64,000 nucleotides of DNA from Thermodesulfobacteriota bacterium (GTDB lineage Bacteria; Desulfobacterota; Desulfobacteria; Desulfobacterales; SURF-7), in NCBI GenBank assembly GCA_049320885.1, contig JBMORA010000035.1, positions 39,054-103,053 of the forward strand, written 5' to 3'. Each line of letters starts with the position of its first letter. The stretch's first letter is position 1. Positions 3,781 to 32,295 of this stretch are shown one piece after another. The position numbers and the translations under genes are program-made. The notes under the pieces were generated by a model that was not told the DNA's origin, ran no database searches, and saw only the letters and a program-made list of their open reading frames with translations.

Positions 3781-3794
3781 TTTTCGGTCTGGAT

Positions 3795-6700
3795 TCAAAA
3801 AAAACATATGGCCATGATCCGGGTCGACCAGACGGTGTCGTGGCTGCATTCCGGCGGGCCGGTGAGGTCCTCCATGGTCCGGTCCTCGCAGCGGGTTTTC
3901 AGTTCCAGCTCCAGGTCGTTGTCCAGCAGGGACCAGCCGATGAGGGGCTCCACAAACCAGATCCGTTGTTTTTCCATGGCGGCTGGTTCCGCATCGGGGC
4001 GGCGCAGCAGATGGCCCGCAACCAGCTTGAGGGTTGCGCCGTTTCCAAAAAAATAGGCCAGCCCGGCATCAACAGCCTGTTCGTCGTATTCGTACGGCAT
4101 TTCGTGGCGGGCGTGGCGCCATCCCAGGTGCCCGGCCAGGCGTTCGGTGATCAAGGCCTCCAGGTAGGCGTGGAGCCGCTCGGTGGTGGCCAGCCGGTTA
4201 TCCCGGGCTTCCGTTCCGGCTGGGTCGAACCGGGAGGTTTCCGCGCGATCCACCCCGGCTTCGAGGCCGCAGAACAGCGGCAAGGCCGGCAGGGTGTAAT
4301 CCATTGCTACGGCAGCGGTTTTTTGGGTCAGGGAGAGCATTTCCTCGGGAGTATACGCATCGGAGATGTCGGTGGAAATCAGCGGGAAAGCCGCCAGCAT
4401 GACCGGTTGCAGGCGGGCGCCCCGGTCTCCTGCAAGGTCTTCGATGTAGGCGGCCCGCAGACGCCAGTTCTCCGCGAAATCCCAGCCGGCGCCGATGACG
4501 GGATTCACCTGGGCGGTGGAATACCTCCGGCCGTCTTCCAGGGAATACTGAAGCGCGTGGGTGAACAGTCCCCAGCCGGCGAAGAGGTCTTCCGCCACGG
4601 CGAGCTGATGGAAAAAATGGCCGGACAGCAGGCTGTTTTTAATCCCGGTGGTGGAAAAAGAGTCGGTGTCCGCGGGAACATAGGTGGTGGTGCTGCCGGT
4701 ATTCTCCCGGCCGTCCGCATACCGGCAGCCGGCCTGGAAATGATTCCGGCCGGCGGATTTCCAGAGGGCGGCCTGGAGGATGCGGCGGAGGGTCTTCTGA
4801 TCGCCGTCCATGCGGGTGGAGGCAAGGCTCTGGATGGTGGTGTCGGCTCCGAACCGGGAGTCGGCGCCTTCCTGGGAATAATTCACCAGAAACTGGGTCT
4901 CCTCACCCAGTTTCAGGCGGCTGCCGAATCCGGCGGCGCCCATGTCGCTTTCGGAACGTGAGGCGGTGACGCTTTGGGTGGACATGGGCGGCAGGTCGGG
5001 GAAGGCGGGAAAATAGAGGCTGGAAAAGGTGTCCGTGTCGCTGTCCGTATCCGCGCGGGTCAGGCGGAGTTCCGAATACAAATCCAGGTTCCAGGAGGGC
5101 CGCCATTTCAGGAAGGCCGAGGTGTAATCGGTGTCCAGGTCCTGATCCATGTGCATGTCCGTTCGGGTTTCATAGCCGGGGGCCGGCTGGATGCTTTGGG
5201 TCGAGAGCCGGGTTTCACCGGAATTTTTTGAAAAGACGGCGGCAACAGCCAGGGGCAGGGAGGGTTTGGCGGCCACGGAGCCGGTATAGGTCTGCTGGGT
5301 ATTGACCGTTATGTCGTCCCGCTGGGAGAAAAACTGTCCGGCCAGATGGATATCCGCGCCGGCGCGGTCGAACATCTCCTGGTAAGCGGACAGGCTGGAT
5401 TCGTCGAAAACGACCCCCGCCCGGGTGGGAGCGGTGAACAGTTTGGCGAGGGTCAGCTCGGATTCCGCCGCCGGATAATACAGGCGCGGATCATTCAGCA
5501 GGGCGAAATACAACCTTCGATGGGCGCCTTCGTCCATGGGGTTGGTTTCCAGGGCCCGGGCCGCCGTCAGGGTGGACGCGTGGGTCAGGCCCAGTTCGTG
5601 GTATATCCCGGCGGCGTTGCTCATCAGCACGGCATTGTCTTGGTCCAGGAGAAAGCGGGAGCGCAGGACCGCCCGGTTGTGGTTCAGGGCCTTGGCTTTT
5701 TCCAGATCCCGGAGGGCCTCGCCGGGCCGGTGCCGGGCATATTTCAGCATGGCGCCGTACAGATAGGGGGTCGGATCCCGGGGATCCAGGCGCTTGGCCC
5801 GATCCAAGCCCGATTCCGCCTGATCCCATTGCTTCAGTTCGTAAAAGGCCTTGGCCAGGTAGGACTGGCTGATGGAGGAGCGGGGGGCGAGGAGGGCGGC
5901 CTCGGCCATGGCCCGGGTGCCTTCTTCCGGCCGGTTGAGGTTGAACAGGGCGATGCCGGCGCCCAGGGCCGCGTCGGCTTCTTCCGGTTCCCGGGCCCGG
6001 GCGCGGCGGAAATGTTCGAGGGCTTCTTGCGGAAACCCTTCCCGCAGGGCGGTGAATCCCAGCAGGGTTTCTTTTTCCGCCTCATGGGGGCCGCCGGGAG
6101 GAATGCTTTCCAGCAGGTGGTGGCAGGCCGGGATATCATCGGTTTCCAGGGCGATGGTCGCAGCGGTGAGCCGGGCCGGAACAAAACCGGGAGCGGCGGC
6201 CACGGCTTTGCGGCTGAAGGCGCCGGCTCCGTCCATATCGAGTTCCGCCTTTTTGACCAGCGCCATGGTCATCAGCGCCAGGGCGGAATCCGGCTGGAGG
6301 GCGAGGGCCTTTTCCGCCAGGTTCCGGGCCTGGTCCATCCGGTTCTGGACGATGGCCGCCATCGCCGGCATGGCCAGGGGCAGGGCCCAATCCGGGGCCA
6401 GTCGGGCGGCGGCGGCGAAGAAACTTTCCGCTTCCCGGTCTTTTCCGGCCACCAGATGCAGGAATCCCGCGAGTGCATTCCAGGAGGCGGTCCGGCCGGA
6501 CTCCGGCCGGGAAGCCGCAAGGATATCAAAGGCGGATTTCAGATCCATCCCATGGCAGGCGGAAAGCGCCTGCTCCATGACCAGGGCAAAGGCCTCGCCG
6601 TCCCGGAATTTGTCCGCTTCGTCCCAGGGCGGACGGTAGCGCAGGGTCCAGTTGACGGCGTTCTCCGGCATGACCAGGGCGGTTTTGATCGGTGCCGTCC

Positions 6701-21181: not shown

Positions 21182-22135
21182 ATGATCGAAGCCTATATTG
21201 AAAAATTCAAAAAGCTGCGGACTGACAGGAATCGAAAAATCTGGACGGAGCGCACTTCTTACCGCGCGCCCCACAAACCTTTCCTGCTGCTCTCGATCAT
21301 GGATCTCATCAACCAGGGAGACATCACCGCCAATTTCATTGAACCGACCTTCGACCTGGTGGAGATGTTCAATACCTACTGGTCGGCCGTCATGCCGCCC
21401 GCAGCCTCCACCAGTATGGCCTATCCGTTTTATCATATGCGCAGCGAAGGCTTCTGGAAGCTCGTACCGGACATCGACACCCCGGTTTATTCCGTCAGTA
21501 AATTGCGTGAGCACTACCAGGGTGCCATCATCGACGAGACCCTGTTCCTACTCTTACAGCAGTCCGCCAGCCAGCACCAGCTGCGCACAGCCCTGATCAC
21601 CACCTATTTCGCCCCGGACCTGCAGCCATTAGTCTTCGAACAGGGCGTAGTAAGCTACCAGGCCCATGCCTATGGCCAGGAACTGCTGCGGATTGCCGAG
21701 TCGGCAGCCGGTTTTGAAAAGACTGTGCCGCCGGCCCTCCAGGAACCGAAAGTCCGCGACCAGGCCTTCCGCAAGGTGATCGTATCCCTGTACAACCACC
21801 GCTGTGCCCTCTGCGGCATCCGCATGCTCACCCCCGAAGGCCATACCGTGGTGGAAGCCGCCCACATCGTCCCTTGGCATAAAAGCCAGGATGATCGGCC
21901 CAGCAATGGGCTTTCTCTCTGCCGCCTCTGCCACTGGTCTTTTGACGAGGGCCTCATGAGCGTTGGTAAAGAGTACGAAGTCCTGGTTTCCAAACGCGTC
22001 ACTCTGGAAAACAATTTTCCAGGGCATATGTTGACTCTTTCGGACCGACGGATCTTCCGTCCCGATGATCAAAAATATTGGCCGGATCAGGAGAATTTAA
22101 ATTGGCATCGTCAGAAATTTTATGAAAGGTTGTAA
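21182..22135 (+). CDS. HNH endonuclease with a ~200-aa N-terminal domain of unknown function
   Basis: HNH core [53 protein letters not shown]. The N-terminus contains [20 protein letters not shown]. It sits directly upstream of hsdR. Confidence 0.8.
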
Positions 22136-22190
22136 AAATCCGGATCAGACGCTATCAATTCACGAGTGTCCAAGAGGGTTTGTGGCCCAT

Positions 22191-24575
22191 ATGGATAAAA
22201 AAAAGCTGAGTGAACGCGACATCTGCACCAAATTCATCACCCCGGCTCTGGAACGCGCGGGTTGGGATATCAGCACCCAGGTTCGGGAAGAATTTCCCCT
22301 TACCAACGGGCGTATCATCGTGCGTGGCAAGCTGTATACCCGCGCCAAGCACAAGCGCGCCGATTATGTCCTGTTTTACAAGCCGAATATTCCCATTGCC
22401 ATTATCGAAGCCAAGGACAACAACCACACGGTTGGCGATGGCATGCAACAGGCCCTGGGCTATGCTGACATGCTGCAAGTGCCGTTTGTATTCAGCTCCA
22501 ACGGCGATGGCTTTTTGTTTCACAACAGAATTGCCGCAGATGGCGTTATCGAGCGTGAGCTCTCACTTAACGAATTTCCCTCTGTGGAAACATTATGGCA
22601 ACTATGGGGGCAACATCGCGGGCTGAACGACCAGCAGAATGCGTTGGTCACGCAGGATTATTATAGCGACGTAAGCGGCAAGAACCCGCGCTATTACCAG
22701 TTATTGGCCATTAACAAAACCATTGAGGCAATCGCTCAGGGGAAAAATCGTATTCTTCTGGTGATGGCAACCGGCACCGGCAAAACCTTCACCGCCTTTC
22801 AAATCATCTGGCGTTTATGGAAGTCCAGGGCAAAAAAACGAATCCTGTTTCTTGCCGACCGCAACATTTTGATCGACCAGACCATGACCAATGATTTCAA
22901 ACCATTCGGTTCGGCCATGACCAAGATCCAGAAGCGGCAGACCAATAAGTCCTACGAGATTTACCTTTCCCTCTATCAGGCTGTTACCGGAAATGAGGAA
23001 GAGAAAAACATTTATAAGCAGTTCAGCCCCGATTTTTTCGATCTGATCATTATTGATGAATGCCATCGGGGCAGTGCGGCCGCCGATTCGGCCTGGCGTG
23101 AAATCCTCGAATATTTCACCTCCGCCACCCAGATCGGTCTTACCGCCACCCCCAAGGAGACCAAAGAAGTTTCCAATATCGATTACTTTGGCGACCCCAT
23201 CTATACTTACAGTCTTCGGCAGGGAATCGACGACGGTTTCCTTGCCCCTTATAAGGTCGTGCGCATCGATTTCGACCGGGATTTGACCGGCTGGCGACCC
23301 GACAAGGGCATGATCGACAAGTACGGCAACGAAATCGAGGACCGCATTTACAACCAAAAGGATTTCGACAAGACCCTGGTCCTTGAACAGCGCACCCAGT
23401 TGGTGGCCAAAAAGATCACCGAATTCCTCAGGCAGACCAACCGCTTCGACAAAGCCATCGTCTTTTGCGAAAACATCGACCATGCCGAGCGCATGCGCCA
23501 GGCCCTGGTCAATGAAAACGCCGACCTGGTGGCGCAAAACAGCAAATACGTCATGCGCATCACCGGCGACAACGAGGAAGGCAAAGCCGAGCTCGATAAC
23601 TTCATTTTTCCGGAGAGTAAATACCCGGTTATTGCCACCACTTCCAAGCTGATGACCACCGGCGTGGATGCTCAGACCTGCAAACTCATCGTGCTCGACC
23701 AGCGCATTCAGTCCATGACCGAATTCAAGCAGATCATCGGGCGCGGCACCCGCATCAATGAAGACTACGGCAAGTACTATTTCACCATCATTGACTTTAA
23801 AAAGGCCACCGAGTTGTTTGCCGACCCTGATTTCGACGGTGATCCGGTCCAGATCTACGAACCCAAGGGGGATGAATCACCGGTGCCGCCGGATATTCCC
23901 GGCGAGGCCGAAAGTGGCAGCGGCGTCACCTACCCGGAACCAGGAGGCGAGCAGGATTGGACCGGCGTCGCCGAACCCGGCCCAGAAGAGGAGGGCGACG
24001 GAACTCGCCGTTACGTCGTGGCCAATGTCGAGGTCAAGGTTGCCGCCGAGCGCGTCCAGTATTTCGACGCCAACGGTAAACTGATCACCGAATCCCTCAA
24101 GGACTACACCCGCAAGGCCCTGGCTAGGGAATACGCCTCCCTCGACGATTTCCTCCGCCGCTGGACCAGCACCGAAAAGAAGCAGGCCATCATCGACGAA
24201 CTCTCCGAACAGGGGGTGTTCTTCGATGCCCTTGCCGATGAGATCGGGCGGCAATCCGGCAAAGCATTCGATCCGTTCGATCTGGTCTGCCATGTCGCTT
24301 GGGATATGCCGCCTCTTACCCGCAAGGAACGGGCGGAACAGGTGAAGAAACGTAACTACTTCACCCAATACGGCGAGCAGGCCCGTCGCGTGCTGGAAGC
24401 GCTGCTCGACAAGTACGCCGATGAAGGCGTGGCCCCCATCGAAGAGACGCAGATTCTCACCATTGCCCCTTTTACCAAATTCGGCACCCCGCTGGAAATT
24501 ATCCGCGCCTTTGGGGGGCTGGATCAGTATCAGCAGGCTGTGCATGAGCTGGAGGATGCGCTTTATGCCGGATAA
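22191..24575 (+). CDS. hsdR: Type I restriction enzyme R subunit
   Basis: N-terminus [26 protein letters not shown]. Helicase motifs [14 protein letters not shown] and [11 protein letters not shown]. EcoEI-R-like C-terminal domain ([23 protein letters not shown]). Start moved to ATG 22191. Confidence 0.95.
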
Positions 24576-25029
24576 ACAAACCTCACACGAAGGCACGAAA
24601 ACACGAAGGGATAAAGAAGGGTTATCCAAGATCGTTGTGGATTGTGCATACCGGATGCATGTTGAGATCGGGCCGGGGTTGCTCGAGTCTGTTTATGAGG
24701 CGGTACTGGAGAAACTGCTATTGGAGAAAGGTCTCAGGGTAAATCGACAAAAGTCCATACCGATTGAGGTGATGGGTCTTTCCATCCATGAAGGATTCAG
24801 GGCTGATCTGATCGTGGAGGATCTTCTGCTGATTGAGCTTAAATCAGTAGAAAAACTCGCCCCGGTTCATTCCAAACAAGTCCTGACCTACCTTCGGCTT
24901 CTCAATCTGCCTCTCGGACTCCTCCTCAACTTCGGCGCAGCCACGTTCAAAGAAGGCTGCAAGCGCATCGTCAACGGCAAACAGGACTTCGTGTCTTCGT
25001 GCCTTCGTGTGAACCAAAAAGGATACTAA
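24565..25029 (+). CDS. GxxExxY-family (PD-(D/E)XK-like) small protein
   Basis: Core [52 protein letters not shown]...[21 protein letters not shown], with G-L-L-E-S-V-Y as the name motif. N-terminal HEGTKTRR and C-terminal FVSSCLRV are translations of the flanking inverted repeat, so the true start is uncertain. Confidence 0.75.
24582..25012. repeat. CACGAAG-type inverted repeat pair enclosing the GxxExxY gene
   Basis: Left arm 24582-24609 is CTCACACGAAGGCACGAAAACACGAAGG. Right arm 24987-25012 is CTTCGTGTCTTCGTGCCTTCGTGTGA. The reverse complement of the right arm matches the left arm at all but ~2 positions. Confidence 0.85.
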
Positions 25030-25031
25030 TC

Positions 25032-26498
25032 ATGTCACTGACCAACCTGATCAAAACCATTCAGGACATCATGCGCAAGGATGTCGGCGTCGATGGCGAC
25101 GCTCAGCGCATCAGCCAGATGGTCTGGCTGATTTTCCTGAAGATCTTCGACGACAAGGAGCAGGAGTGGCAGCTCACCGTGCCCGGCTACAAATCGCCGC
25201 TGCCCAGCCGTTTCCGCTGGTCCAGCTGGGCCAAGAACCCCGAGGGGATGACCGGCGAGGAATTGATCGACTTCGTCAACAATGACCTCTTCCCGGCGCT
25301 TAAAAAACTGGCCATCACAGCCGGCGTGTCGACCCATGGCAAGGTGGTCGGTTCGGTGTTCGAGGACGCCTACAACTATATGAAATCAGGTCATCTCCTG
25401 CGCCAGGTGATCAACACCATCGAAGCGGATGTGGACTTCAACAAATCCAGCGACCGGCACCTGTTCAACGACATCTACGAAAAGATTCTTTCTGACCTGC
25501 AATCGGCCGGTAACGCAGGTGAATACTACACCCCCCGCGCCGTCACCCGGTTCATGGTCGACATGCTCGATCCTCGACTCGGGCAAACCATTCTCGACCC
25601 GGCCTGCGGCACCGGCGGCTTTCTGACCTGCGCCATCGAGCACCTGAACAAGCAGGTCAAAACCGCCGAGGACCGCAAGCGCCTGCAGGGGTGTATCCAC
25701 GGCGTGGAGAAGAAACCCCTGCCGCACATGCTGGCCATGACCAACATGATGCTGCACGGCATCGATGTGCCCACCAACGTCCACCACGACAACACCCTGA
25801 GCCGACCGCTGAAGGATTACGGCCCCCGCGACCGGGTTGACCTGATCATCACCAACCCGCCCTTTGGCGGCATGGAAGAGGATGGAATCGAGAATAACTT
25901 CCCGCGCAAGTACCAGACCCGCGAGACCGCCGACCTCTTCATGGCGCTGATCATGCACCGCTTGAAGCACGATACCGGCAAGGCCGCCGTGGTTCTGCCC
26001 GACGGCTTTCTGTTCGGCGAGGGAACCAAAACCAATCTGAAGCGCGAATTGTTGGAGGAATTCAATCTGCACACCATCGTGCGCCTCCCCAAAGGCGTGT
26101 TCAGCCCCTATACCAGTATCGCCACCAACATCCTCTTTTTCGAAAAAGGCGATCCGACCAAGGAGGTCTGGTTCTTCGAGCACCCGTATCCTGAGGGCTA
26201 CAAATCCTACTCCCGCTCCAAGCCCCTGACCATCGCCGAGTTCGATCTCGAAAAAGCCTGGTGGGGCGGAGCCGGGCGCAAGGGCCGCAAGACCACCGAA
26301 CAGGCCTGGAAGGTTTCGGCCAAGGAACTGGCTGAACGCAACTACAACCTGGACTGCAAGAACCCGCACCAGGTGGAGGTCAACCACCGCGATCCGGAAG
26401 AGTTGATGGCCGAATACCGGCAGATCGTCCACCAGCTCGAAGCGGCGCAGGCAGCCTTGAAAGCCGAGTTGACGGCCTGCCTGGGGGGCAAGTCATGA
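25032..26498 (+). CDS. hsdM: Type I restriction-modification N6-adenine DNA methyltransferase subunit
   Basis: MSLTNLIKTIQDIMRKDVGVDGDAQRISQMVWLIFLKIFDD. SAM motif ILDPACGTGGFL. Catalytic motif LIITNPPFGG. Confidence 0.95.
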   Translation: MSLTNLIKTIQDIMRKDVGVDGDAQRISQMVWLIFLKIFDDKEQEWQLTVPGYKSPLPSRFRWSSWAKNPEGMTGEELIDFVNNDLFPALKKLAITAGVSTHGKVVGSVFEDAYNYMKSGHLLRQVINTIEADVDFNKSSDRHLFNDIYEKILSDLQSAGNAGEYYTPRAVTRFMVDMLDPRLGQTILDPACGTGGFLTCAIEHLNKQVKTAEDRKRLQGCIHGVEKKPLPHMLAMTNMMLHGIDVPTNVHHDNTLSRPLKDYGPRDRVDLIITNPPFGGMEEDGIENNFPRKYQTRETADLFMALIMHRLKHDTGKAAVVLPDGFLFGEGTKTNLKRELLEEFNLHTIVRLPKGVFSPYTSIATNILFFEKGDPTKEVWFFEHPYPEGYKSYSRSKPLTIAEFDLEKAWWGGAGRKGRKTTEQAWKVSAKELAERNYNLDCKNPHQVEVNHRDPEELMAEYRQIVHQLEAAQAALKAELTACLGGKS

Positions 26499-27655
26499 GC
26501 GACGTGCAGTTGACAACTCCGGAATACCGCGACTGGCTGAAGGAGATCAAGCAGCGATTGCGGCAGGCGCAGGTGAAGGCGGCGGTGCAGGTGAATACCG
26601 CCTTGCTGACCTTCTACTGGGAGCTGGGCGCGGACATTGTGGAGCGCCAGAAATCGGCTCTATGGGGCAGCGGATTTCTGAAACAGTTGAGCGCCGACCT
26701 GATGGCGGAGTTTCCGGACATGAAGGGGTTTTCGCGGCGGAACCTTGAACAGATTCGCCGCTGGTATCTGTTTTATGCCGAAGGGATTACAAATTGCGCA
26801 ACAAGCTGTGGCACAATTGGGCAGCAAGCTGTTGTCCAATTACCGGAAAAGAGGGGAGAATCAATTGCGAAGCAGCCTGCTGCGCAATTGGCCGACAGTT
26901 CAGTTCCGTCACACCTCGTGGCCAAATTGGTTCAGATTCCCTGGTGGCATAATGTGGTGATTATCTCCAAATGCAAGGATGTGACCGAAGCGATTTACTA
27001 TGTAAACAAGACCATCGATCATAACTGGAGCCGGAATGTCCTGACCCACCAGATTGAGAGCGGTTTGTATGTGCGCGAGGGAAAGGCGGTCACCAATTTT
27101 GCACAGACCTTACCGGCTCCACAGTCGGATTTGGCGCAACAGTTGATGAAAGATCCCTACAATTTTGATTTTTTAACGCTGACCAAAGACTACAACGAAC
27201 GGGAGCTTGAAAAGGCGCTGACTGACCATATCACCAAATTTCTTTTAGAGCTGGGTGCCGGTTTCGCCTATGTGGGACGCCAAAAAGAGTTGCAGGTGGG
27301 TGAGCGGGATTTCTTCCTCGATTTGCTATTTTACCACACCAAACTTCATTGCTATGTCGTCATTGAGCTCAAGACCGGCGAGTTTGAACCGGAGTATGCC
27401 GGTAAACTTAATTTTTATCTGAAGGCGGTGGATGAGCAGCTGCGCGGGGATCGGGATGAGCCGACCATTGGCATTCTGCTCTGCAAAACCCGAGATCGCG
27501 TCGTGGTGGAGTATGCGCTGAGTGACATTAGCAAACCCATGGGCGTTTCGGAATACCAGCTTACCCGCGCCCTGCCGGATAACCTGAAATCGAGCCTGCC
27601 CTCCATTGAGGAACTGGAAGCGGAGTTCGGCAACCCGGAGGGAGATGATGAATAA
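26495..27655 (+). CDS. DUF1016 (YhcG-like) PD-(D/E)XK nuclease-family protein, copy 2, between hsdM and hsdS
   Basis: 386 aa. QAQVKAAVQVNTALLTFYWELGADIVERQ...NWSRNVLTHQIESGLY...YNFDFLTLTKDYNERELEKAL...FAYVGRQKELQVGERDFFLDLLFYHTKLHCYVVIELKTGEF. Its start overlaps the hsdM stop (ATGA). Confidence 0.9.
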   Translation: MSDVQLTTPEYRDWLKEIKQRLRQAQVKAAVQVNTALLTFYWELGADIVERQKSALWGSGFLKQLSADLMAEFPDMKGFSRRNLEQIRRWYLFYAEGITNCATSCGTIGQQAVVQLPEKRGESIAKQPAAQLADSSVPSHLVAKLVQIPWWHNVVIISKCKDVTEAIYYVNKTIDHNWSRNVLTHQIESGLYVREGKAVTNFAQTLPAPQSDLAQQLMKDPYNFDFLTLTKDYNERELEKALTDHITKFLLELGAGFAYVGRQKELQVGERDFFLDLLFYHTKLHCYVVIELKTGEFEPEYAGKLNFYLKAVDEQLRGDRDEPTIGILLCKTRDRVVVEYALSDISKPMGVSEYQLTRALPDNLKSSLPSIEELEAEFGNPEGDDE

Positions 27656-27664
27656 CGGGATGGT

Positions 27665-27843
27665 CTCACACGAAGGCACGAAGACACGAAGTTTTGAAAA
27701 CAGTCGTTATACCCGCGAAGGCGGGTACCCAGATTCGTGGCAACGATTTATCCAACGGCTTGCTGCACTATTTCCAATTATTCAGACCGGGAGGGGGGTA
27801 TGACCAGTTCGTCCTCCTTCGTGCCTTCGTGTCTTCGTGTGAG
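27665..27843. repeat. CACGAAG-type inverted repeat pair without cargo
   Basis: Left arm 27665-27691 is CTCACACGAAGGCACGAAGACACGAAG. Right arm 27817-27843 is CTTCGTGCCTTCGTGTCTTCGTGTGAG. The 125-nt interior holds the hairpin ACCCGC-GAAG-GCGGGT (27711-27726) and GGGAGGGGGGTATG, which is the hsdS SD and start. Confidence 0.85.
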
Positions 27844-29842
27844 CGATCTGCTGGAACAGCATTTCGACACCGCCTTTGCCGCGCCTGCCGGTATCGCCAA
27901 ACTGCGCGAGTTGATCTTGACCCTCGCCATGCAGGGCAAGCTGGTGGAACAGGACCCGAACGACCCACCCGCCAGCGAGTTGCTGAAGGAGATCGAAGCC
28001 GAAAAACAGCAGCTTGTGAAAGCGGGCAAGATTAAAAAGCCCAAGCCGCTGCCGCCCATTAAGCCGGAGGAAGTGCCCTACGAACTGCCGGAGGGATGGG
28101 AGTGGGCGAGGCTCGGTGAAATAACTGAATACAACGGTCGAAAAAATATCTCGGGCGATGAGATAGCCCCCGATACATGGTTGCTTGATCTCGAAGACAT
28201 TGAAAAGGGAACTTCTCGTATTCTGTTCCGAGCAAAGTTTTCAGAGCGCCAATCAAAATCTACGAAATCAACCTTTCAGAAAGGTGATGTGCTTTATGGC
28301 AAACTTCGTCCCTATCTCGACAAGGTTGTGGTAGCAGATGCTGATGGAGTTTGCACGACTGAGATTGTGCCCATCGTTCCGTTTAACGGAATACATTCTG
28401 AATTTCTCAGGTGGTTACTAAAGCGCCCTGCATTTATAACCCATGTTAACTCTCTCATGTATGGCGTCAAAATGCCCAGGCTTGGCACAGATGATGCTTT
28501 AACGAGTATTCACCCGCTTCCCCCCCTCCCCGAACAACACCGCATCGTCGCCCGCATCAACCAGTTGATGACCCGTTGTGATGAGTTGGAAAAGCTGCAC
28601 AAACAGCGGGAGGAGAAGCGGCTGGCCGTCCACGCCGCCGCCATCAAGCAACTGCTCGACCCGCCGGACCTGTCTGCCGGCCAGGCAGGCGGCTCGGCCT
28701 GGGACTTTATCCAACAGCACTTCGACGACCTCTACACCGTCAAGGAAAACGTCGCCGAACTGCGCAAGGCCATCCTCCAACTCGCCGTAATGGGCCGCCT
28801 CGTTCCCCCTGCCTGCCGGCAGGCAGGCAAGACCCCAACGACCCTCCCACCACCAGAACCTGGATCATGGTGGGTGTACGTTATTGAGTGCGAAAATGGA
28901 TCATTCTATAAAGGTTTTACAGAAGATCTTCCGCGTCGCTGGCGGCAACATCTATCAGGTACTGCGAGCGAATGGACAAAAAAGCATCCACCCAAACAGG
29001 TTTACTACTGGGAAAAATGTTTTTCAAAAGAAGCAGCCATTAAGCGGGAAGACTATTTGAAATCAGGCTTTGGTCGAGAATGGTTCAAGCGCGAGGTGGT
29101 TGATAATCAAAAAGCATGGCAGACCGCCAGCGAACTGCTCAAAGAGATCGAAGCCGAAAAACAGCGACTGATGAAGGCAGGTAAAATCAAGAAGCCCAAG
29201 CCCGTACCGCCCATCAAGCCGGAGGAAGTGCCCTACCAACTGCCGCAGGGCTGGGAGTGGGTGCGATTTGGAAAAGTTGCGAGCAACCGACTAGGAAAAA
29301 TGCTCGATAAATCTAAGAATCGAGGTAACCCAAAACCATATTTGAGAAATACCAATGTTCAATGGCATCAGTTTGTTCTTGATGATGTCAAAGAGATGAA
29401 ATTCGAAGATGAAGAGCTTGATGAATTTCGTGTACTTCCCGGTGACCTTCTAATATGCGAAGGTGGTGAACCCGGTCGCTGTGCAATATGGCGCGATTCA
29501 GAGGTAGAAATCTATTTCCAGAAAGCCATACATAGAGCGAGGCCGTTTTCGTGCGTTACTTCTGAGTATCTGCAAGTTTGCCTTACAAACGATGGGGGTA
29601 ACGGTCAGTTGGAAAAGTATTTCACTGGGGCAACAATCAAGCATTTCCCTGGTGACAAGCTTAATGGGTATGTCATTCCTCTACCACCTCTTCCCGAACA
29701 ACACCGCATCGTCGCCCGCATCGATCAGTTGATGGCCCTGTGCGACACACTCGACCAGCAGATCGACGCTGCCACCGGCAAAAAGACCGAACTGCTGGAC
29801 GCCGTGATGGCCCGCCTGTCGGCAGACACGGCCCAGGTATAA
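27800..29842 (+). CDS. hsdS: Type I R-M specificity subunit with a GIY-YIG nuclease domain embedded in the central conserved region
   Basis: Two TRDs, each preceded by ASELLKEIEAEKQ.L.KAGKIKKPKP.PPIKPEEVPY.LP.GWEW and followed by LPPLPEQHRIVARI.QLM. Between them sits WWVYVIECENGSFYKGFTEDLPRRWRQHLSG...QVYYWEKCFSKEAAIKREDYLKSGFGREW (GIY-YIG/UPF0213-like). Start set at ATG 27800, behind GGGAGGGGGG. Confidence 0.85.
   Translation: MTSSSSFVPSCLRVSDLLEQHFDTAFAAPAGIAKLRELILTLAMQGKLVEQDPNDPPASELLKEIEAEKQQLVKAGKIKKPKPLPPIKPEEVPYELPEGWEWARLGEITEYNGRKNISGDEIAPDTWLLDLEDIEKGTSRILFRAKFSERQSKSTKSTFQKGDVLYGKLRPYLDKVVVADADGVCTTEIVPIVPFNGIHSEFLRWLLKRPAFITHVNSLMYGVKMPRLGTDDALTSIHPLPPLPEQHRIVARINQLMTRCDELEKLHKQREEKRLAVHAAAIKQLLDPPDLSAGQAGGSAWDFIQQHFDDLYTVKENVAELRKAILQLAVMGRLVPPACRQAGKTPTTLPPPEPGSWWVYVIECENGSFYKGFTEDLPRRWRQHLSGTASEWTKKHPPKQVYYWEKCFSKEAAIKREDYLKSGFGREWFKREVVDNQKAWQTASELLKEIEAEKQRLMKAGKIKKPKPVPPIKPEEVPYQLPQGWEWVRFGKVASNRLGKMLDKSKNRGNPKPYLRNTNVQWHQFVLDDVKEMKFEDEELDEFRVLPGDLLICEGGEPGRCAIWRDSEVEIYFQKAIHRARPFSCVTSEYLQVCLTNDGGNGQLEKYFTGATIKHFPGDKLNGYVIPLPPLPEQHRIVARIDQLMALCDTLDQQIDAATGKKTELLDAVMARLSADTAQV
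28808..28827. repeat. Perfect 20-nt palindrome CCTGCCTGCCGGCAGGCAGG inside hsdS
   Basis: Read directly from the sequence. It lies between CTCGTTCCC (LVP) and CAAGACCCCAACGACCCTCCC, which would encode QDPNDPP only in the +2 frame. Confidence 0.9.
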
Positions 29843-29851
29843 GGAGATGCC

Positions 29852-29981
29852 ATGCGCCTGACATCACTTTATATCGGCCAGTACAAGAACCTTCGGGATT
29901 TTTCTCTGAGGTTCGACCTGCCGGCCGGGCAGGCGGGCGGCAGCAACTTTATCGATGTCTTTGTCGGCAATACCGTCGGCC
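29852..29981 (+). pseudogene. 5' stub of an R-M-linked ATPase-like gene, joined to a NERD-gene fragment and cut by the IS
   Basis: Strong SD (AAGGAG) and MRLTSLYIGQYKNLRDFSLRFD...SNFIDVFVG resemble the N-terminus of AAA_15/21-type ATPases up to where Walker A should begin. From ~29965, TCGGCAATACCGTCGGCC matches the NERD copies (32596.., 38281..). Confidence 0.4.
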
Positions 29982-30212
29982 TGATGTGGTTTAATGAGAG
30001 CGGACACTGAGTCAAGCGTGGTTTTTTAATCGGCTTAGAAACATAGACAAAACAGAAGGTTTTTGTTATCTGGCACGGCAACTAGCCGGAAAGGTTATTT
30101 GCGAGAATGGGCTATAGGTGCTCGTCGGAGCAAATAAACTTTCCGGCGGGTCCCAGGATTCGGCTTGGATAGCGGATATGTTTCGGGAGCTATTACGCAG
30201 ACGAGGTGTTCA

Positions 30213-30515
30213 ATGGGTGAAAAGAAGCAGCGAAAAGATTACACGGATGAATTTAAACTGGATGCCGTCAAGCTAGTTATCGAACAAGGGTACTCCACCC
30301 CTGAGGTTGGCCGGCGGCTGGGGATCAATCATACCAACGTCTCAAGATGGGTTCGGGAATATCATGCAAAGATAGGTGTCCCTTCCAAAAGTTCAGGTGC
30401 TGTCCAGGAACTGGAGGAGGAGGTAAAACGCCTCAGAAAAGAAAACAAACGCCTTTTGATGGAGCGAGAAATCTTAAAAAAGGCGGCGGCCTTCTTTGCG
30501 AACGAATCGAACTGA
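30213..30515 (+). CDS. IS3 transposase OrfA (HTH)
   Basis: MGEKKQRKDYTDEFKLDAVKLVIEQGYSTPEVGRRLGINHTNVSRWVREY...LMEREILKKAAAFFA. The slippery heptamer AAAAAAG lies at 30476-30482. Confidence 0.85.
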   Translation: MGEKKQRKDYTDEFKLDAVKLVIEQGYSTPEVGRRLGINHTNVSRWVREYHAKIGVPSKSSGAVQELEEEVKRLRKENKRLLMEREILKKAAAFFANESN

Positions 30516-31383
30516 GGTTCGATTTTATCCGGCAGCAAATGAAGGCCTATCCCGTAACCGTCTTATGTTCGGTGATGCGGGTTAGCCGGGGTGGGTTCTA
30601 TGGCTATCTGAAACGATTCAATGCTGGGAAGAATCGTCCAGAAGAGACCGAATTGGGGAAGCGAATCAAAGAAATATTCAACGATCACAAAAACTGCTAC
30701 GGATCCCGACGGATCGCAAGGCAATTAAGGGATGAAGGCCAGCCGGTGGGCCGATATAAAGTGCGACGGATCATGCGCCAGTTGTGGGGCTGAAGGCAAA
30801 AACTCCCAAGCGGTTCAAGCTGACGACCGACAGCCGACATTCGTTCCCGGTGGCGCCCAATACCCTGAATCGGAAATTCACGGTTGATGCTCCGAACAAG
30901 GTCTGGACGGCGGATATCACCTATGTATGGACCTTTGAAGGTTGGTTATACCTGGCGGTTGTCATGGACCTGTATTCCCGCCGGATTGTCGGGTGGGCCA
31001 TGAGTGAAAGAATGCAGAAGCAGCTTGTGCTGGATGCCCTGGCCATGGCGTATTGGCAGCGGAAGCCCTCAAAGGGTCTTTTGCATCATTCGGATCGCGG
31101 AAGTCAGTATGCCTGCCATGAATACAGGAAGCGGCTTAAAGGCTATGGCATGGAGGCCAGCATGAGCAGAAAGGGAAACTGCTGGGATAATTCACCAATG
31201 GAACGCTTTTTCCGCTCCTTGAAATCAGAACGGTTGACCGCTTGCCGTTTTGTGTCACGGAATGAAGCAAAAATGGAAATACTGGACTATATTACATTCT
31301 ATAACAGCATTCGGCTTCATTCGACATTGGGGTACGTATCTCCGATGGCTTATGAGAAAAAACAGTACTTAAAGGTGGCTTGA
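30476..31383 (+). pseudogene. IS3 transposase OrfB (DDE), entered by -1 frameshift and then broken by an extra frameshift
   Basis: The -1 frame continues from the A6G site. DDE region WTADITYVWT...HSDRGSQYA...NSPMERFFRSLKSE. The frame breaks at ~30784 (CAGTTGTGGGGCTGA where CAGTTGGGGCTGAAG is expected), which looks like a 2-nt TG insertion. Confidence 0.75.
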
Positions 31384-31594: not shown

Positions 31595-32063
31595 GACTTA
31601 CCCGCAATGCTCGGGTCCGTGGAATTATGGAGGCCGTGACGAATGCATGATACGACCAAGCCATTGATGGTTAGCGAGGATAGTGTTTCATATGGGGGGG
31701 AAAAGCCATGATGACCCTTCGGCTTTTCTCCGGGAAATTTGAATCCGTGCCGGCCGCCACATCCTGGTACTTGGCAGACCTTGGCGAGGCGCGTGGCAAA
31801 CAGGAATTGTTTACCCGTCAATCGCCGCAGCGTCTCAAGGCTTTGCGGGAGCACGCCCTCATTGAAAGCGCCGTATCATCCAACCGGATCGAGGGCGTGG
31901 AGGTCGAGCAATCCCGAATCGCCACCATCGTCTTCGGCCAGCCGCTTCTGCGGGACCGTGATGAGGAGGAAGTCCGGGGATACCGGCAGGCCCTGACCTG
32001 GATTCATGAGCAAGGGGCGAAAATCCCGATATCGGAAGAGACCGTTTTACAGCTCCATCATAT
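31595..32063 (+). repeat. 469-bp direct repeat, copy 1 (fic upstream region and Fic N-terminal domain)
   Basis: Colinear with 34809-35277 at equal length. I count about five substitutions and no net indel. Confidence 0.85.
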
Positions 32064-32295
32064 GACACGCGGGGAAATCTGGGATGCCGGAAAATACAAA
32101 AATAAAGACGGCGACATTATCGAAAAGTTTCCGGATGGCAGGTCGCGGGTCCGCTTCAAAACCGTTCCGGCGAAAGACACGCCGAGTTTCATGAAGGATC
32201 TGGTCGAGTTGTACGACGATGCCATCGAGGATCGCAAAGTCCCGCCGCTTGTCCTTTTAGCCGCCCTCAACCTCGATTGGGGCGGCAAGTGTTGA
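31708..32295 (+). pseudogene. Fic-family protein truncated before the catalytic HPFxxGNGR motif
   Basis: Fic_N-like region with the inhibitory-helix motif SSNRIEG ((S/T)xxxE(G/N)). It ends ...LLAALNLDWGGKC*, where Fic proteins continue into the HPF motif. Confidence 0.7.

Follow-up and report, generated by a model that had tools for sequence, protein, structure and literature searches.

We found that the hsdS gene in the window (the whole stretch of 64,000 nucleotides that was analyzed) carries an insert that is best read as one copy of a family of selfish, translation-dependent cassettes, each made of a nuclease and a hairpin. From the sequence comparisons described below, we put the probability of this reading at roughly 65%. 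The family is widespread and apparently undescribed. Its members have two parts: (i) an ORF of ~90 aa for a UPF0213/Slx1-like GIY-YIG nuclease, which is produced only when translation of the host gene reads through it, and (ii) a single conserved hairpin, CCTGCCTGC...GCAGGCAGG. The parts occur in two layouts. In class B, the hairpin is split into the two ends of a unit of exactly 282 nt. In class A, which includes the window copy, the whole 20-nt hairpin lies upstream of the ORF, with ~21 nt of former host motif between them and with decayed ORF ends. The best reading is also that the cassette is neither a domesticated HsdS domain nor an on/off switch. It is carried by the anatomy of the insert, its recurrence, selection on the protein, selection on the nucleotides of the hairpin, and clean presence or absence between close alleles. 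We infer mobility from evidence that is wholly comparative.

The host gene is a type I specificity subunit gene. Its reading frame was uninterrupted from the ATG at 27800 to 29842, and its product is identical to an NCBI protein (P0001) from a Thermodesulfobacteriota metagenome-assembled genome. Pfam identified two Methylase_S domains (two target-recognition domains, TRDs) and a GIY-YIG domain. Alignment with nine HsdS proteins showed the two TRDs with conserved helical regions between them, and an AlphaFold2 model (mean pLDDT 88.9) matched the HsdS structures 5ybb_D, 3okg, 2y7c and 1yf2. The gene sits in an hsdR / PDDEXK_3 / hsdM / YhcG / hsdS operon, with hsdR and hsdM both upstream on the same strand (Table 1). 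A direct repeat (D1; 27969-28106 and 29124-29261) is 85% identical.

Table 1. Features of the hsdS region and of its inserts (positions in the window).
Feature	Position	Strand	Remarks
Operon upstream of hsdS	22122..27655	+	ORFs, Pfam
hsdR	22122-24575	+	Pfam ResIII, EcoEI_R_C
PDDEXK_3 gene	24421-25029	+	Pfam
hsdM	24999-26498	+	Pfam N6_Mtase, HsdM_N
YhcG/DUF1016 gene	26495-27655	+	Pfam
hsdS ORF, EcoAI/EcoEI-like type I specificity subunit with insertions	27800..29842	+	680 aa plus stop
Intact N-terminal copy of target motif, GKLVEQDPNDPPASELLKEIEAEK	27937..27999	+	Internal reference for the empty site
Uninserted (empty) hsdS target site			LVPQDPNDPPAS and CTCGTTCCCCAAGACCCCAACGACCCTCCCGCCAGC
End-only 21-nt palindrome, CCTGTCTGCCGGCCAGGCAGG	28669..28689	+	In frame, adds LSAGQAG; inside Asp codon (ccgccgGA|..|Cggctcg)
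Perfect 20-nt palindrome, conserved hairpin, CCTGCCTGCC|GGCAGGCAGG	28808..28827	+	Translated PACRQAG
Former host motif, CAAGACCCCAACGACCCTCCC, 21-nt spacer between hairpin and nuclease	28828..28848	+	Gene frame KTPTTLP(P); old frame QDPNDPP
GIY-YIG nuclease block, UPF0213/Slx1-like, without own start or stop	28849..29125	+	Alternative parse 28842-29118
Native HsdS frame back, ASELLKEIEAEKQRL...PQGWEW, into second TRD	29126..29260	+	Starts GCCAGCGAA (ASELL)
Probable third palindrome, degenerate, 21 nt, CCTGCCGGCCGGGCAGGCGGG	29917..29937	+	LPAGQAG; after GA (ttcGA|..|Cggcagc)
Class A consensus, part 1			CCTG(C/T)CTGCCG(G/A)CAGGCAGG after V-P codons, then ~21 nt from CAAGAC
Class A consensus, part 2			GIY core GSFYKGFT...YLKSGxGREWFKREVV, then (E/Q)P-like codons, AS..LL

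The initial annotation had described the insert as a palindrome, a displaced host motif and a nuclease block, and this anatomy was confirmed. On the letters of the window, a perfect 20-nt palindrome (CCTGCCTGCCGGCAGGCAGG) directly follows CTCGTTCCC (28799-28807), the codons for LVP. It is predicted to fold as an 8-bp hairpin, and joining the two ends of the 282-nt sister cassette, left before right, gives its sequence. Its chance expectation in shuffles of the window, with 3 mismatches tolerated, was 0.01 matches. Translation in both frames showed that the relic QDPNDPP is kept but is out of frame. The 277-nt block that comes next encodes the GIY-YIG domain, and the native frame resumes immediately after it. 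Together the palindrome and the block add 20+277=297 nt, or 99 codons. Judged against the ancestral motif, they are two separate insertions that each break the frame and jointly restore it, as had been claimed. Seven codons are shifted: the 20 nt of the palindrome, one fewer than in an in-frame 21-nt solo palindrome, are offset by an extra base that opens the nuclease block. The start of the block (CCCTCCCACCACCAGAACCTGG) has one C more than the left end of the related cassette of 282 nt (CCTGCCTGCGCCGCGGCCAGG), with which it otherwise aligns. The boundary of the block is ambiguous, because a shift of 7 nt leftward is equally valid and places the insert at 28842-29118, after AACGA. Under that parse CAGACC would be the host's own 'EP' codons, and the last 7 nt of the spacer may be a degenerate left end of the cassette instead of host motif. 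The block has a GC content of 45%, compared to 58-64% in the flanking conserved regions of hsdS, and is the only copy of the nuclease within the 64 kb. The insertion site is a Pro/Asp-rich stretch after the central helix. Model confidence is low exactly there (residues 331-350 of the spacer, pLDDT 63-77), indicating a linker, and HsdS probably tolerates the insert because this linker is flexible.

We found that the inserted nuclease is a conserved catalytic domain. Pfam family PF01541 matched the block at E=1e-15 (57.9 bits, gathering cut-off 22.6). The nearest solved structures found by search were 1ZG2 (E=4e-10) and 1YWL, and the Slx1 structures 6seh and 7cq3 matched the HsdS model, in which the nuclease domain folds confidently (pLDDT 86-96). 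The insert is 92-94 aa long and is the catalytic domain alone, with no NUMOD, HTH or zinc finger detected by Pfam. The catalytic Y, Y, R, H and E are unchanged throughout the class A and class B alignments. In the nuclease core dN/dS was 0.04-0.10 with dS saturated (above 2); for the window and its relative L001 the nuclease gave 0.056 with a dS of 2.25. These alignments indicate strong purifying selection on the nuclease as read in the fused frame and, with the conserved residues, predict nuclease activity. The domain is expressed only within HsdS.

The same arrangement recurs in distant bacteria. We recovered 24 distinct class A copies of palindrome, relic and nuclease block from at least 5 phyla, with hosts in Thermodesulfobacteriota, Leptospirales, Janthinobacterium, Verrucomicrobia, Bacteroidales and metagenomes. 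The site was always the HsdS motif LVP|QDPNDxP|AS (bars mark insertion points here and below), in its N-terminal, central or C-terminal copy, across different HsdS families. The question had been raised whether the palindrome and the block occur independently among homologues. In class A they do not: all 24 copies carry both, the palindrome is exactly 20 nt and directly follows the V-P codons in each (24/24), and 0/24 had no palindrome or one of another length. The relic recurs with them. The window copy fits the class A consensus (Table 1) at every point, and in the tree it falls together with L001 and L004. A target-site duplication of the 'EP' codons was considered; the left and right copies differ in most class A lineages. 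The class A layout is old, fixed and confined to the HsdS DNA motif encoding LVP-QDPNDxP-AS.

The hairpin is the most conserved stretch of the entire insert. The window and L001 share 93% of the nucleotides in palindrome plus relic (dS 0.18), compared to 76% in the nuclease block (dS 2.3). The palindrome is read in all three frames among hosts (PACRQAG, LPAGRQ and CLPAGR), and therefore it is not its peptide that is conserved. Read on the sense strand, the variants are mostly T.G or G.T, and a C.A mismatch in one copy (L014) is compensated to T-A in another (L052). These comparisons indicate that the hairpin is under selection at the nucleotide level.

Class B is a compact sister form of the cassette. 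Of the 15 distinct DNA copies recovered, 14 are exactly 282 nt, that is, 94 codons with no start, no stop and no target duplication. Their ends are the two halves of the 20-nt palindrome. Insertion is between the second and third bases of an Asp codon (GA|Y), mostly with G or A next, and gives junction residues D|LPAPRP...RQAG|E/G/Y. The terminal 15-18 nt are invariant and interior third positions are free, in hosts with a GC content from 34% to 66%. Between the ends 16 pairs are predicted, and one of them covaries (GC in eight copies, AU in four). Removal of the unit in silico restored the exact host sequence, for example VFDDGP in MsrB and PQDPNDEPAS in HsdS. The units held no target-site duplication and no DDE, HUH, Ser or Tyr transposase; the sole encoded protein is the GIY-YIG nuclease. 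Class B hosts include HsdS, HsdM, HsdR, MsrB, TrmD, ArgRS and others, and the form is present in at least 168 protein clusters.

To define the host range we used a profile search of all proteins, as a word-index search with the 93-aa module had given three matches only and missed long hosts. The unbiased HMM search (E<=1e-30) yielded 168 protein clusters. Among 54 clean-ended inserts, 49 were exactly 94 aa and 36 followed Asp. HsdS accounted for 59 of 101 hosts scanned; the rest included HsdM, HsdR and DUF1156 methylases, and also MsrB, TrmD, ArgRS, trigger factor, QueC and TatD. Plasmid and phage collections contained only generic UPF0213-like genes below 48% identity and no family member. 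The tree has two clades, one with the complete upstream hairpin and one with the split hairpin. An HsdR copy (L024) with the palindrome upstream of a repeat-less nuclease is nested inside class B, so the palindrome-upstream layout arose at least twice, in the HsdS proteins of class A and in this HsdR. The complete palindrome is also found 5' of N-terminal HsdS forms and of free-standing relatives (such as L073 and L083), the latter with 24-77 nt between palindrome and core.

We also found the palindrome without the nuclease. The end-only palindrome upstream of the insert has the same GA|Y context as the 282-nt cassettes. The degenerate one downstream lies in a short ORF (29852-30010) that is shortened ahead of an IS3-family element, and by its sequence is a probable member of the same family. 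All three palindromes are within 1.3 kb of the nuclease block, and there are none in the remaining 62 kb; a 12-nt palindrome at 47771, considered as a fourth copy, proved to be ordinary histidine-kinase coding sequence (NLPAGKY). GA precedes 13 of ~25 palindromes outside class A. In 35 stretches of viral contigs the exact palindrome is present as well, in nearly all of them away from any nuclease gene, and therefore the hairpin can exist without a nuclease in cis. Solo palindromes of 20-30 nt would be remnants, or a minimal form, of such elements.

Comparison with the nearest hsdS allele, from Desulforhabdus (L003; dS of the flanks 0.2-0.3 or 0.22-0.57 relative to the window), revealed an empty site. 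L003 has neither the 297 nt nor the 21-nt solo palindrome, where it reads CCGGATGGCTCG. The junctions are clean, and 29126..29260 is 91% identical to the uninserted allele. No co-conversion tract was visible beside the insert in this comparison. The insert is thus polymorphic, present or absent at a conserved site, and recurs at that site in distant hosts.

One of the two explanations offered in the initial annotation was that a nuclease domain had been domesticated into the coiled-coil spacer of HsdS. The GIY-YIG domain would then work in the type I enzyme, for example as a second nuclease placed on DNA by HsdS. Strong purifying selection in the fused frame, the intact operon, the old and fixed layout and the prevalence of HsdS, HsdM, HsdR and DUF1156 methylases among hosts are all consistent with this notion. 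However, the same cassette is found in MsrB, TrmD, ArgRS, trigger factor, QueC and other proteins, including housekeeping ones. The nuclease and hairpin are kept in remnants of HsdS, namely a 161-aa stub without TRDs (L005) and a decayed fragment (L004), and the nuclease is intact in L007, where a stop codon separates it from HsdS. The three positions occupied within HsdS are structurally different places, and the site in the window is a linker. The closest allele lacks the insert altogether, and an enzyme domain gives no obvious reason for selection on the nucleotides of the hairpin. We consider domestication unlikely. Nevertheless, the bias to type I restriction proteins (59% HsdS) could reflect a host-beneficial role there.

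The other explanation offered was a switch, in which loss or gain of the 20 nt would toggle between the fused 680-aa HsdS and a half-HsdS with a separate nuclease. The arithmetic fits: minus the 20 nt, LVP-QDPNDPP leads to a stop, which we found after 12 codons (TTRTWIMVGVRY, then the stop) and not after the 17 given originally. A natural split state also exists, in L007 and L010. But this split is due to a C>T point mutation that makes a TAG inside the palindrome, which is not lost, and all 24 class A copies keep its 20 nt. In N-terminal copies (Prevotella and Janthinobacterium) the 'off' product would be shorter than 30 aa. A palindrome of 20 nt is far shorter than the lengths known to be unstable in bacteria. 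Phase-variable hsdS genes have extra copies and a recombinase, or a slippage repeat; tblastn across the 64 kb found no second hsdS segment, and the window holds no recombinase partner. A switch is therefore highly improbable.

We regard it as just as improbable that the hairpin causes a recoding or RNA event (frameshifting, ribosome bypass or RNA excision) that gives ribosomes access to the old frame, QDPNDxP, as well. In several lineages the relic can still be read as QDPNDPP or QDPNDEP in its former frame, a CCCCC run lies 5' of the hairpin in the window, and the tolerance of G.T suggests that the sense strand folds. However, in the window the old frame ends after those 12 codons and in L011 it meets a stop at once, and the C-run is not conserved (it is CCG CCT in Bacteroidales). 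Substitutions in the relic have no frame preference, the counts being small and mixed: in Bacteroidales 3 leave the amino acid unchanged in the old frame and 2 do so in the new, and between the window and L001 2/2 are synonymous in the new. Rfam found no RNA family, including no intron, over 27500-30200. Finally, although the window comes from a metagenome-assembled genome, an assembly error is refuted by the presence of the layout in the isolates Hoylesella timonensis S9-PR14, Prevotella corporis DSM 18810 and Prevotella sp. S7-1-8 and in dozens of independently assembled metagenomes, and chance resemblance by the expectation of 0.01.

Our results are most consistent with the selfish nuclease-plus-hairpin cassette. 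The nuclease would act on the hairpin, or on the structure formed by the paired ends, leading to copying or movement. To our knowledge, GIY-YIG enzymes are hydrolytic nucleases and not transposases, and we know of no mechanism for precise insertion without target duplication. Terminal inverted repeats are intact only in the 282-nt class B units; the window copy has the whole palindrome upstream and, of the ends, just a degenerate left one. Since it lacks intact terminal repeats and its palindrome follows a Pro codon and not GA, the class A unit may be immobile now, and class A may have spread only by recombination between hsdS alleles. It is only an idea, by analogy with the geometry of I-TevI, that the palindrome might mark where the DNA is cut, 21 nt upstream of the point of insertion; in free-standing relatives its spacing differs. 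We tentatively propose, as a possibility that we rate somewhat below even, that the units are a new class of mobile element within ORFs: a 282-nt 'translation-parasitic' element whose ends pair, which would enter and exit precisely at GA|Y without duplication. In-frame palindromes would be its footprints or non-autonomous forms, and the window copy a rearranged member. As tentative as this proposal, and part of it, is the idea that the driver is the structure-specific Slx1-like nuclease, and no known transposase, ribozyme or intein.

If this is true, bacterial proteins, even the essential TrmD and ArgRS, can harbour a selfish nuclease domain that splicing never removes. It would account for odd 'GIY-YIG fusion' annotations and, in many proteins, for short insertions rich in Pro/Ala/Gly/Arg/Gln (LPAGRQAG, PACRQAG). 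It would also provide a very small system (282 nt, a 94-aa protein and one hairpin) for studying how a hydrolytic GIY-YIG enzyme might achieve precise insertion and excision. For restriction-modification biology, the most conserved DNA stretch of hsdS would be a hotspot for hairpin-nuclease elements, and HsdS would accommodate a folded domain of 90 aa within the linker that follows its conserved helices.

A search of the full-text literature found no description of a hairpin-nuclease cassette, and its sole relevant item was an insertion in an HsdR. In MCA0838 of Methylococcus capsulatus, an Slx1-like GIY-YIG domain is inserted in HsdR; a close homologue lacks it, and the authors considered the insertion recent and probably of little importance to the enzyme's function [Dunin-Horkawicz et al. 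2006, PMC1564403]. Like the window copy, it is a UPF0213/Slx1-type GIY-YIG domain in frame within a type I restriction subunit. It was described as a single case, and in the passages of that paper that we found there is nothing on a hairpin, terminal repeats, a fixed length, a target rule, other hosts or mobility.

Known GIY-YIG homing genes include I-TevI and I-BmoI, the free-standing Seg and Mob genes of T4, and in-frame ORFs of fungal mitochondria, for example in Allomyces atp6. The proposed cassette resembles them in being a selfish nuclease at a highly conserved host-gene motif, under purifying selection, with presence or absence between close alleles and reuse of the homologous site in distant hosts; it resembles the fungal mitochondrial ORFs in being fused in frame to host coding sequence. 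Unlike I-TevI, it has no linked DNA-binding domain, only the catalytic core of ~90 aa. It also has no intron or intein, so the insert is kept in mRNA and protein, and it is not free-standing with its own start, although some relatives are. Its length is fixed at 282 nt, its ends are inverted repeats and the hairpin is part of the unit. Homing genes have one long site, whereas the target here is a loose GA|Y.

Rickettsia palindromic elements, mitochondrial GC clusters and double-hairpin elements are short palindromic repeats found in frame. They lie in protein-coding genes and are translated as an extra peptide, as are the 20-30-nt solo palindromes here. They have no known enzyme of their own, whereas the palindrome of the cassette is physically linked to an ORF for a nuclease. 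REP/REPIN-RAYT and IS200/IS605 systems also have hairpin repeats flanking a small nuclease-type gene, and IS200/IS605 elements insert by a short motif without target duplication. However, their enzymes are HUH/Y1 transposases with covalent intermediates and not GIY-YIG hydrolases, and they are intergenic or have their own promoters and start codons, whereas the cassette is translated from within a host ORF. Inteins are likewise in-frame inserts in conserved, even essential, proteins, often with a homing nuclease. In contrast, the cassette has only 94 aa, almost all of it nuclease. Pfam found no Hint domain, and there is no Cys, Ser or Thr at the first or +1 residue, the window junctions being ..VP|PACRQAG.. 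and ..AWQT|ASELL. If the preferred reading is correct, the cassette would be, after introns and inteins, a third kind of hiding place for a nuclease gene within a host gene.

We found that the window's hsdS, the final gene of an EcoAI/EcoEI-type operon (hsdR / PDDEXK_3 / hsdM / YhcG(DUF1016) / hsdS, by Pfam), is interrupted by a palindrome and a GIY-YIG nuclease block. The initial annotation had described the palindrome, an out-of-frame relic of the host motif QDPNDPP, the nuclease block and the return of the native frame, and all four were confirmed on the window sequence. Its further statement that a stop would follow 17 codons on without the palindrome was wrong; the old frame ends after 12 codons. 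Window shuffles gave a chance expectation of 0.01 matches to the palindrome, even at three mismatches. The GC content of the nuclease block was 45%, versus 58-64% for the conserved hsdS regions on either side. NCBI holds an identical 680-aa protein from a Thermodesulfobacteriota MAG.

Features in and around the interrupted hsdS (window coordinates)
Feature	Position	Strand	Remarks
hsdS ORF	27800-29842	+	680 aa, ORF translation
Perfect 20-nt palindrome CCTGCCTGCCGGCAGGCAGG	28808-28827	+	directly 3' of CTCGTTCCC (LVP)
Relic CAAGACCCCAACGACCCTCCC	21 nt directly 3' of palindrome	+	QDPNDPP in old frame, KTPTTLP(P) in gene frame
GIY-YIG domain block	28849-29125	+	PF01541, 57.9 bits
Native frame back at ASELLKEIEAEK	29126	+	agrees with uninterrupted N-terminal motif copy, ~27937-27999
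21-nt solo palindrome	28669-28689		in frame; GA|C-GGC context; missing from closest allele (L003)
Degenerate palindrome	29917-29937		GA|C-GGC context; probable family member
HNH_2 endonuclease gene	21182-22135		directly 5' of hsdR, overlapping hsdR start
PDDEXK_3 gene	24421-25029		PD-(D/E)XK type
YhcG/DUF1016 gene	26495-27655		PD-(D/E)XK type
179-nt unit	27665-27843		27-nt inverted repeats (CTCACACGAAGGCACGAAGACACGAAG / complement); between YhcG gene and hsdS
52-aa ORF (MRLTSLYIGQYKNLRDF...)	within 29852-31383		3' of hsdS, immediately 5' of IS3-family element
18-nt inverted repeat	30085-30147
IS3-family ORFs	30165-31383		HTH_Tnp_1, HTH_21, rve
Fic-family gene	31708-32295		next in window

The two PD-(D/E)XK-type genes are extra members of the type I operon, and a DUF1016 gene also lies between hsdM and hsdS (2872-3999) in an unrelated cassette-bearing gut-metagenome operon (L005). 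The 179-nt unit supplies hsdS with its start codon and first 14 codons (MTSSSSFVPSCLRV) and looks like a MITE recruited as a gene start; it occurs, 84 nt longer, at the equivalent place in Desulforhabdus sp. TSK (L003). The 52-aa ORF looks truncated by the IS3-family element, and the Fic-family gene also comes next in the Desulforhabdus locus.

The same layout was present elsewhere. A search with the whole HsdS recovered two more HsdS proteins (P0004 and P0063; loci L001 and L002) with a GIY-YIG domain at the equivalent place, and with the nuclease module alone as query the closest relatives were all joined to HsdS conserved-region sequence. Scanning the module alignment against one genome per species and the JGI metagenomes gave a total of 24 distinct DNA copies of the window's layout (class A), from Leptospirales, Janthinobacterium, Verrucomicrobia, Prevotella, Hoylesella, Sodaliphilus and uncultured samples. 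They occupied the N-terminal, central or C-terminal LVP|QDPNDxP|AS motif across different HsdS families, and the palindrome was always exactly 20 nt (24/24), after V-P codons and before CAAGAC-like sequence. The nuclease was also found in a 161-aa HsdS stub without target-recognition domains in a gut hsdR-hsdM-DUF1016 operon (L005) and in a decayed C-terminal HsdS fragment (L004). A C>T change within the palindrome of a Verrucomicrobia HsdS (L007) creates a TAG stop that splits off the nuclease ORF. Tandem repeats of ~23 nt (GGGCATCAATCGCAGTGCGAAAG-like) lie immediately 3' of the L005 stub (4487-4576). Close HsdS homologues of 768-796 aa (P0007, P0044, P0066, P0074, P0081, P0086, P0091 and others), ~220 aa beyond normal, had no GIY-YIG match and may contain a third target-recognition domain or an inserted module of another kind.

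We found a sister form (class B) in which the palindrome is split between the two ends of a compact unit. At L002, the nuclease block begins with CCTGCCTGCGCCGCGGCC... and ends with ...GGCCGGACGCGGCAGGCAGG, and an internally deleted 69-nt copy with identical ends lies just 5' of it. This tandem (69-nt copy, LPAPRPGKW-LEGEIKAGRTRQAG, 3376-3444; full 282-nt unit, 3445-3726) occupies one HsdS site; P0289 has a similar tandem, and in P0244 a single HsdS contains two full nuclease modules. Fifteen distinct class B units were recovered, of which 14 were exactly 282 nt (94 codons); none had a start or stop codon. The terminal 15-18 nt were invariant, and interior third positions varied freely, in hosts of 34% to 66% GC. 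In RNAalifold the two ends paired (16 pairs, one covarying, GC x8 and AU x4). Insertion was between codon bases two and three, nearly always of Asp (GA|Y), with G or A usually the next base. Removal in silico exactly regained the host sequence, with no target duplication, as in MsrB (gtgtttgatga|..|tgggccc, VFDDGP) and HsdS (..aatga|..|tgaacctgccagt, PQDPNDEPAS). Judged by these ends, the window 20-mer CCTGCCTGCC|GGCAGGCAGG is the unit's left and right ends side by side.

A profile search of all 1.84 billion cluster representatives returned 168 proteins at the cut-off of E<=1e-30, almost all of them with the module internal to a protein of 200-1100 aa. HsdS accounted for 59 of the 101 hosts scanned with Pfam. 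Other hosts were HsdM, HsdR, DUF1156 and N6_N4 methylases; housekeeping hosts included MsrB, trigger factor, TatD, QueC, TrmD, arginyl-tRNA synthetase, Ogt, cobalamin adenosyltransferase and more. Clean LPAPRP...RQAG ends marked 54 inserts; of these, 49 were exactly 94 aa and 36 followed Asp. Unrelated lineages shared sites in HsdM (..GRYVGxEExxD|G(I)PFEEKM), MsrB (GHVF(D/E)D|GP), HsdR (WKTxD|G) and HsdS (QDPND|EPAS). The neighbour-joining tree divided into two clades, one of forms whose complete hairpin lies upstream and one of split-hairpin forms. The complete palindrome also lay 5' of free-standing relatives (L073, L076, L083, L085), which have a ribosome-binding site and ATG of their own, and of forms inserted N-terminally in another HsdS family, behind LCP-GA|. 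The latter bring an SDPDTLP segment along; the "relic" thus moves together with the unit. In the HsdS N-terminal forms L074, L079 and L081 the element has a duplicate of the host's first ~14 codons (M..LI..LCPD), and the nuclease would thus be translated from a decoy hsdS start, with the real hsdS restarting downstream; the second start copy of L081 bears its own palindrome at the identical GA| position.

The window copy would be an altered form of this unit. Its block opens with GA-CCCTCCCACCACCAGAACCTGG, which lines up with GA-CCTGCCTGCGCCGCGGCCAGG at the start of class B units apart from one extra C; no right terminal repeat is left and intact ends are absent. The extra C restates the frame arithmetic: the hairpin is one base short of an in-frame 21-nt solo, the nuclease block carries an additional base on its left side, and the seven codons in between are read in a shifted frame. 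An HsdR locus, L024, has the same layout, with 11 nt between the palindrome and a repeat-less nuclease downstream of it, but it nests within class B, beside a canonical unit at the identical site; this layout therefore arose at least twice.

The insert is present or absent between related alleles. The nearest hsdS allele (L003; flanks 87-94% identical, dS 0.22-0.57) has neither the 20-nt nor the 277-nt insertion, nor the 21-nt solo, its junctions are clean, and no conversion tract was visible beside the insert when it was compared with the window. The nearest insert-bearing allele, L001, has different target-recognition domains and a nuclease at dS 2.3 from the window's. Because the close allele is empty and the distant one filled, gain or loss must be far more recent than divergence from the L001 copy.

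Palindromes also stand without a nuclease. Apart from the class A palindrome, the solo and the degenerate copy, the window has none; its other 62 kb are free of them. Outside the class A site, 13 of ~25 palindromes at all loci were preceded by GA, versus 1 in 16 expected; the class A palindrome is preceded by a Pro codon, not GA. The exact palindrome occurred in 35 viral-contig stretches, mostly without a nearby nuclease gene. The viral or MGE contigs L146, L153 and L154 (IMGVR_UViG_3300037242_000417), L126, L132 and L155 carry 2-6 exact copies and no nearby GIY-YIG gene; in some of them a longer repeat is built around the palindrome (..CGTAG-pal-GGGCGGCAC.., GGTRAGAGG-pal-TKARAGGTK), and 28/38 copies lie within long open frames. 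Longer relatives of ~30 nt (e.g., CCTGTCTGCGTGCGGAGACGCACAGGCAGG), read as PACASHAGG, PVCRDTGR, PVCVRTRTGR and similar, occur in and around cassettes, even within a cassette's own end, at several per kilobase (P0128, P0130, P0135, P0141; L023 506-535, 713-742, 2417-2446, 2545-2574; L024 ~2944-2973).

In the fused frame, strong purifying selection acts on the nuclease core. For the window versus L001, dN was 0.126 and dS 2.25 (ratio 0.056); the ratio was 0.038 for L010 versus L046 and 0.105 for the window versus L009, and dS was saturated in the remaining pairs. The catalytic Tyr, Tyr, Arg, His and Glu did not vary in the alignments. The closest solved structures were the UPF0213 proteins BH0048 (1ZG2) and EF2693 (1YWL). 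An AlphaFold2 model of the whole 680-aa protein (mean pLDDT 88.9, pTM 0.80) resembled HsdS structures, its inserted part resembling 1ZG2 and Slx1. The nuclease domain had pLDDT 86-96, with the minimum (63-77) at residues 331-350, including the stretch encoded by palindrome and relic, which in the model reads as a linker.

The palindrome is conserved as nucleotides. Identity between the window and L001 was 93% (dS 0.18) over palindrome and relic, 76% over the nuclease block and 70-79% over the hsdS flanks. Hosts read the palindrome in all three frames (PACRQAG, LPAGRQ, CLPAGR), so it is the nucleotide sequence that is kept, not a peptide. On the sense strand, most variants gave T.G or G.T, and one C.A mismatch (L014) was restored to a T-A pair in L052. 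These variants, small in number, would fit a sense-strand hairpin, as RNA or single-stranded DNA.

Our comparisons showed that only read-through translation of the host gene can produce the nuclease, that the hairpin is under nucleotide-level constraint, and that the unit is precise, leaves no duplication and recurs at conserved sites, with solo palindromes clustered near it. Judging from sequence, we suggest that it is a selfish element (probability about 0.65, lower for details). A structure-specific, Slx1-like nuclease might work on the hairpin or the paired-end stem and could thereby favour copying, excision or gene conversion. HsdS would be the preferred host since the DNA that encodes LVPQDPNDEPAS shows high conservation and frequent exchange, and since the site would be a tolerant linker. 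Against a selfish element stand the purely comparative nature of the case for movement, the window copy, without intact ends, and the palindromes on viral contigs, mostly with no nuclease gene close by; also, GIY-YIG enzymes are not known to act as transposases.

Alternatively, the module might have been domesticated as a working HsdS domain, as the initial annotation proposed. The strong bias of hosts to restriction proteins fits this notion, but housekeeping hosts, the nuclease kept in HsdS stubs and its variable position within HsdS make it unlikely. The annotation's other proposal, a palindrome gained and lost as a switch, is highly improbable, since none of the 24 copies lacked the palindrome or departed from 20 nt. 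Recoding or RNA excision has just as slim a chance, because the old frame stops at once. Assembly error and a strain-specific accident are excluded by recurrence of the layout in 24 distinct copies.

The nearest earlier report of anything like this element is a single case from 2006, a GIY-YIG domain of Slx1-like type within Methylococcus capsulatus HsdR, which the authors judged recent and probably unimportant (PMC1564403). No account of the hairpin, of the 282-nt unit or of the GA|Y rule turned up in our full-text literature search. Like homing endonuclease genes, the element has a conserved target and presence/absence variation, but it is without a DNA-binding domain or intron. It shares in-frame palindromes with Rickettsia palindromic elements. 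Like REP/RAYT and IS200/IS605, it combines hairpins with a small nuclease gene and no duplication, but without an HUH or DDE enzyme. Like inteins, it lies in frame within essential genes, but it has no Hint motifs and is no intein. It fails a defining feature of each of these systems and is therefore filed with selfish nuclease genes; that it deserves the name of a new class of mobile element is a possibility toward which we lean slightly less than even.
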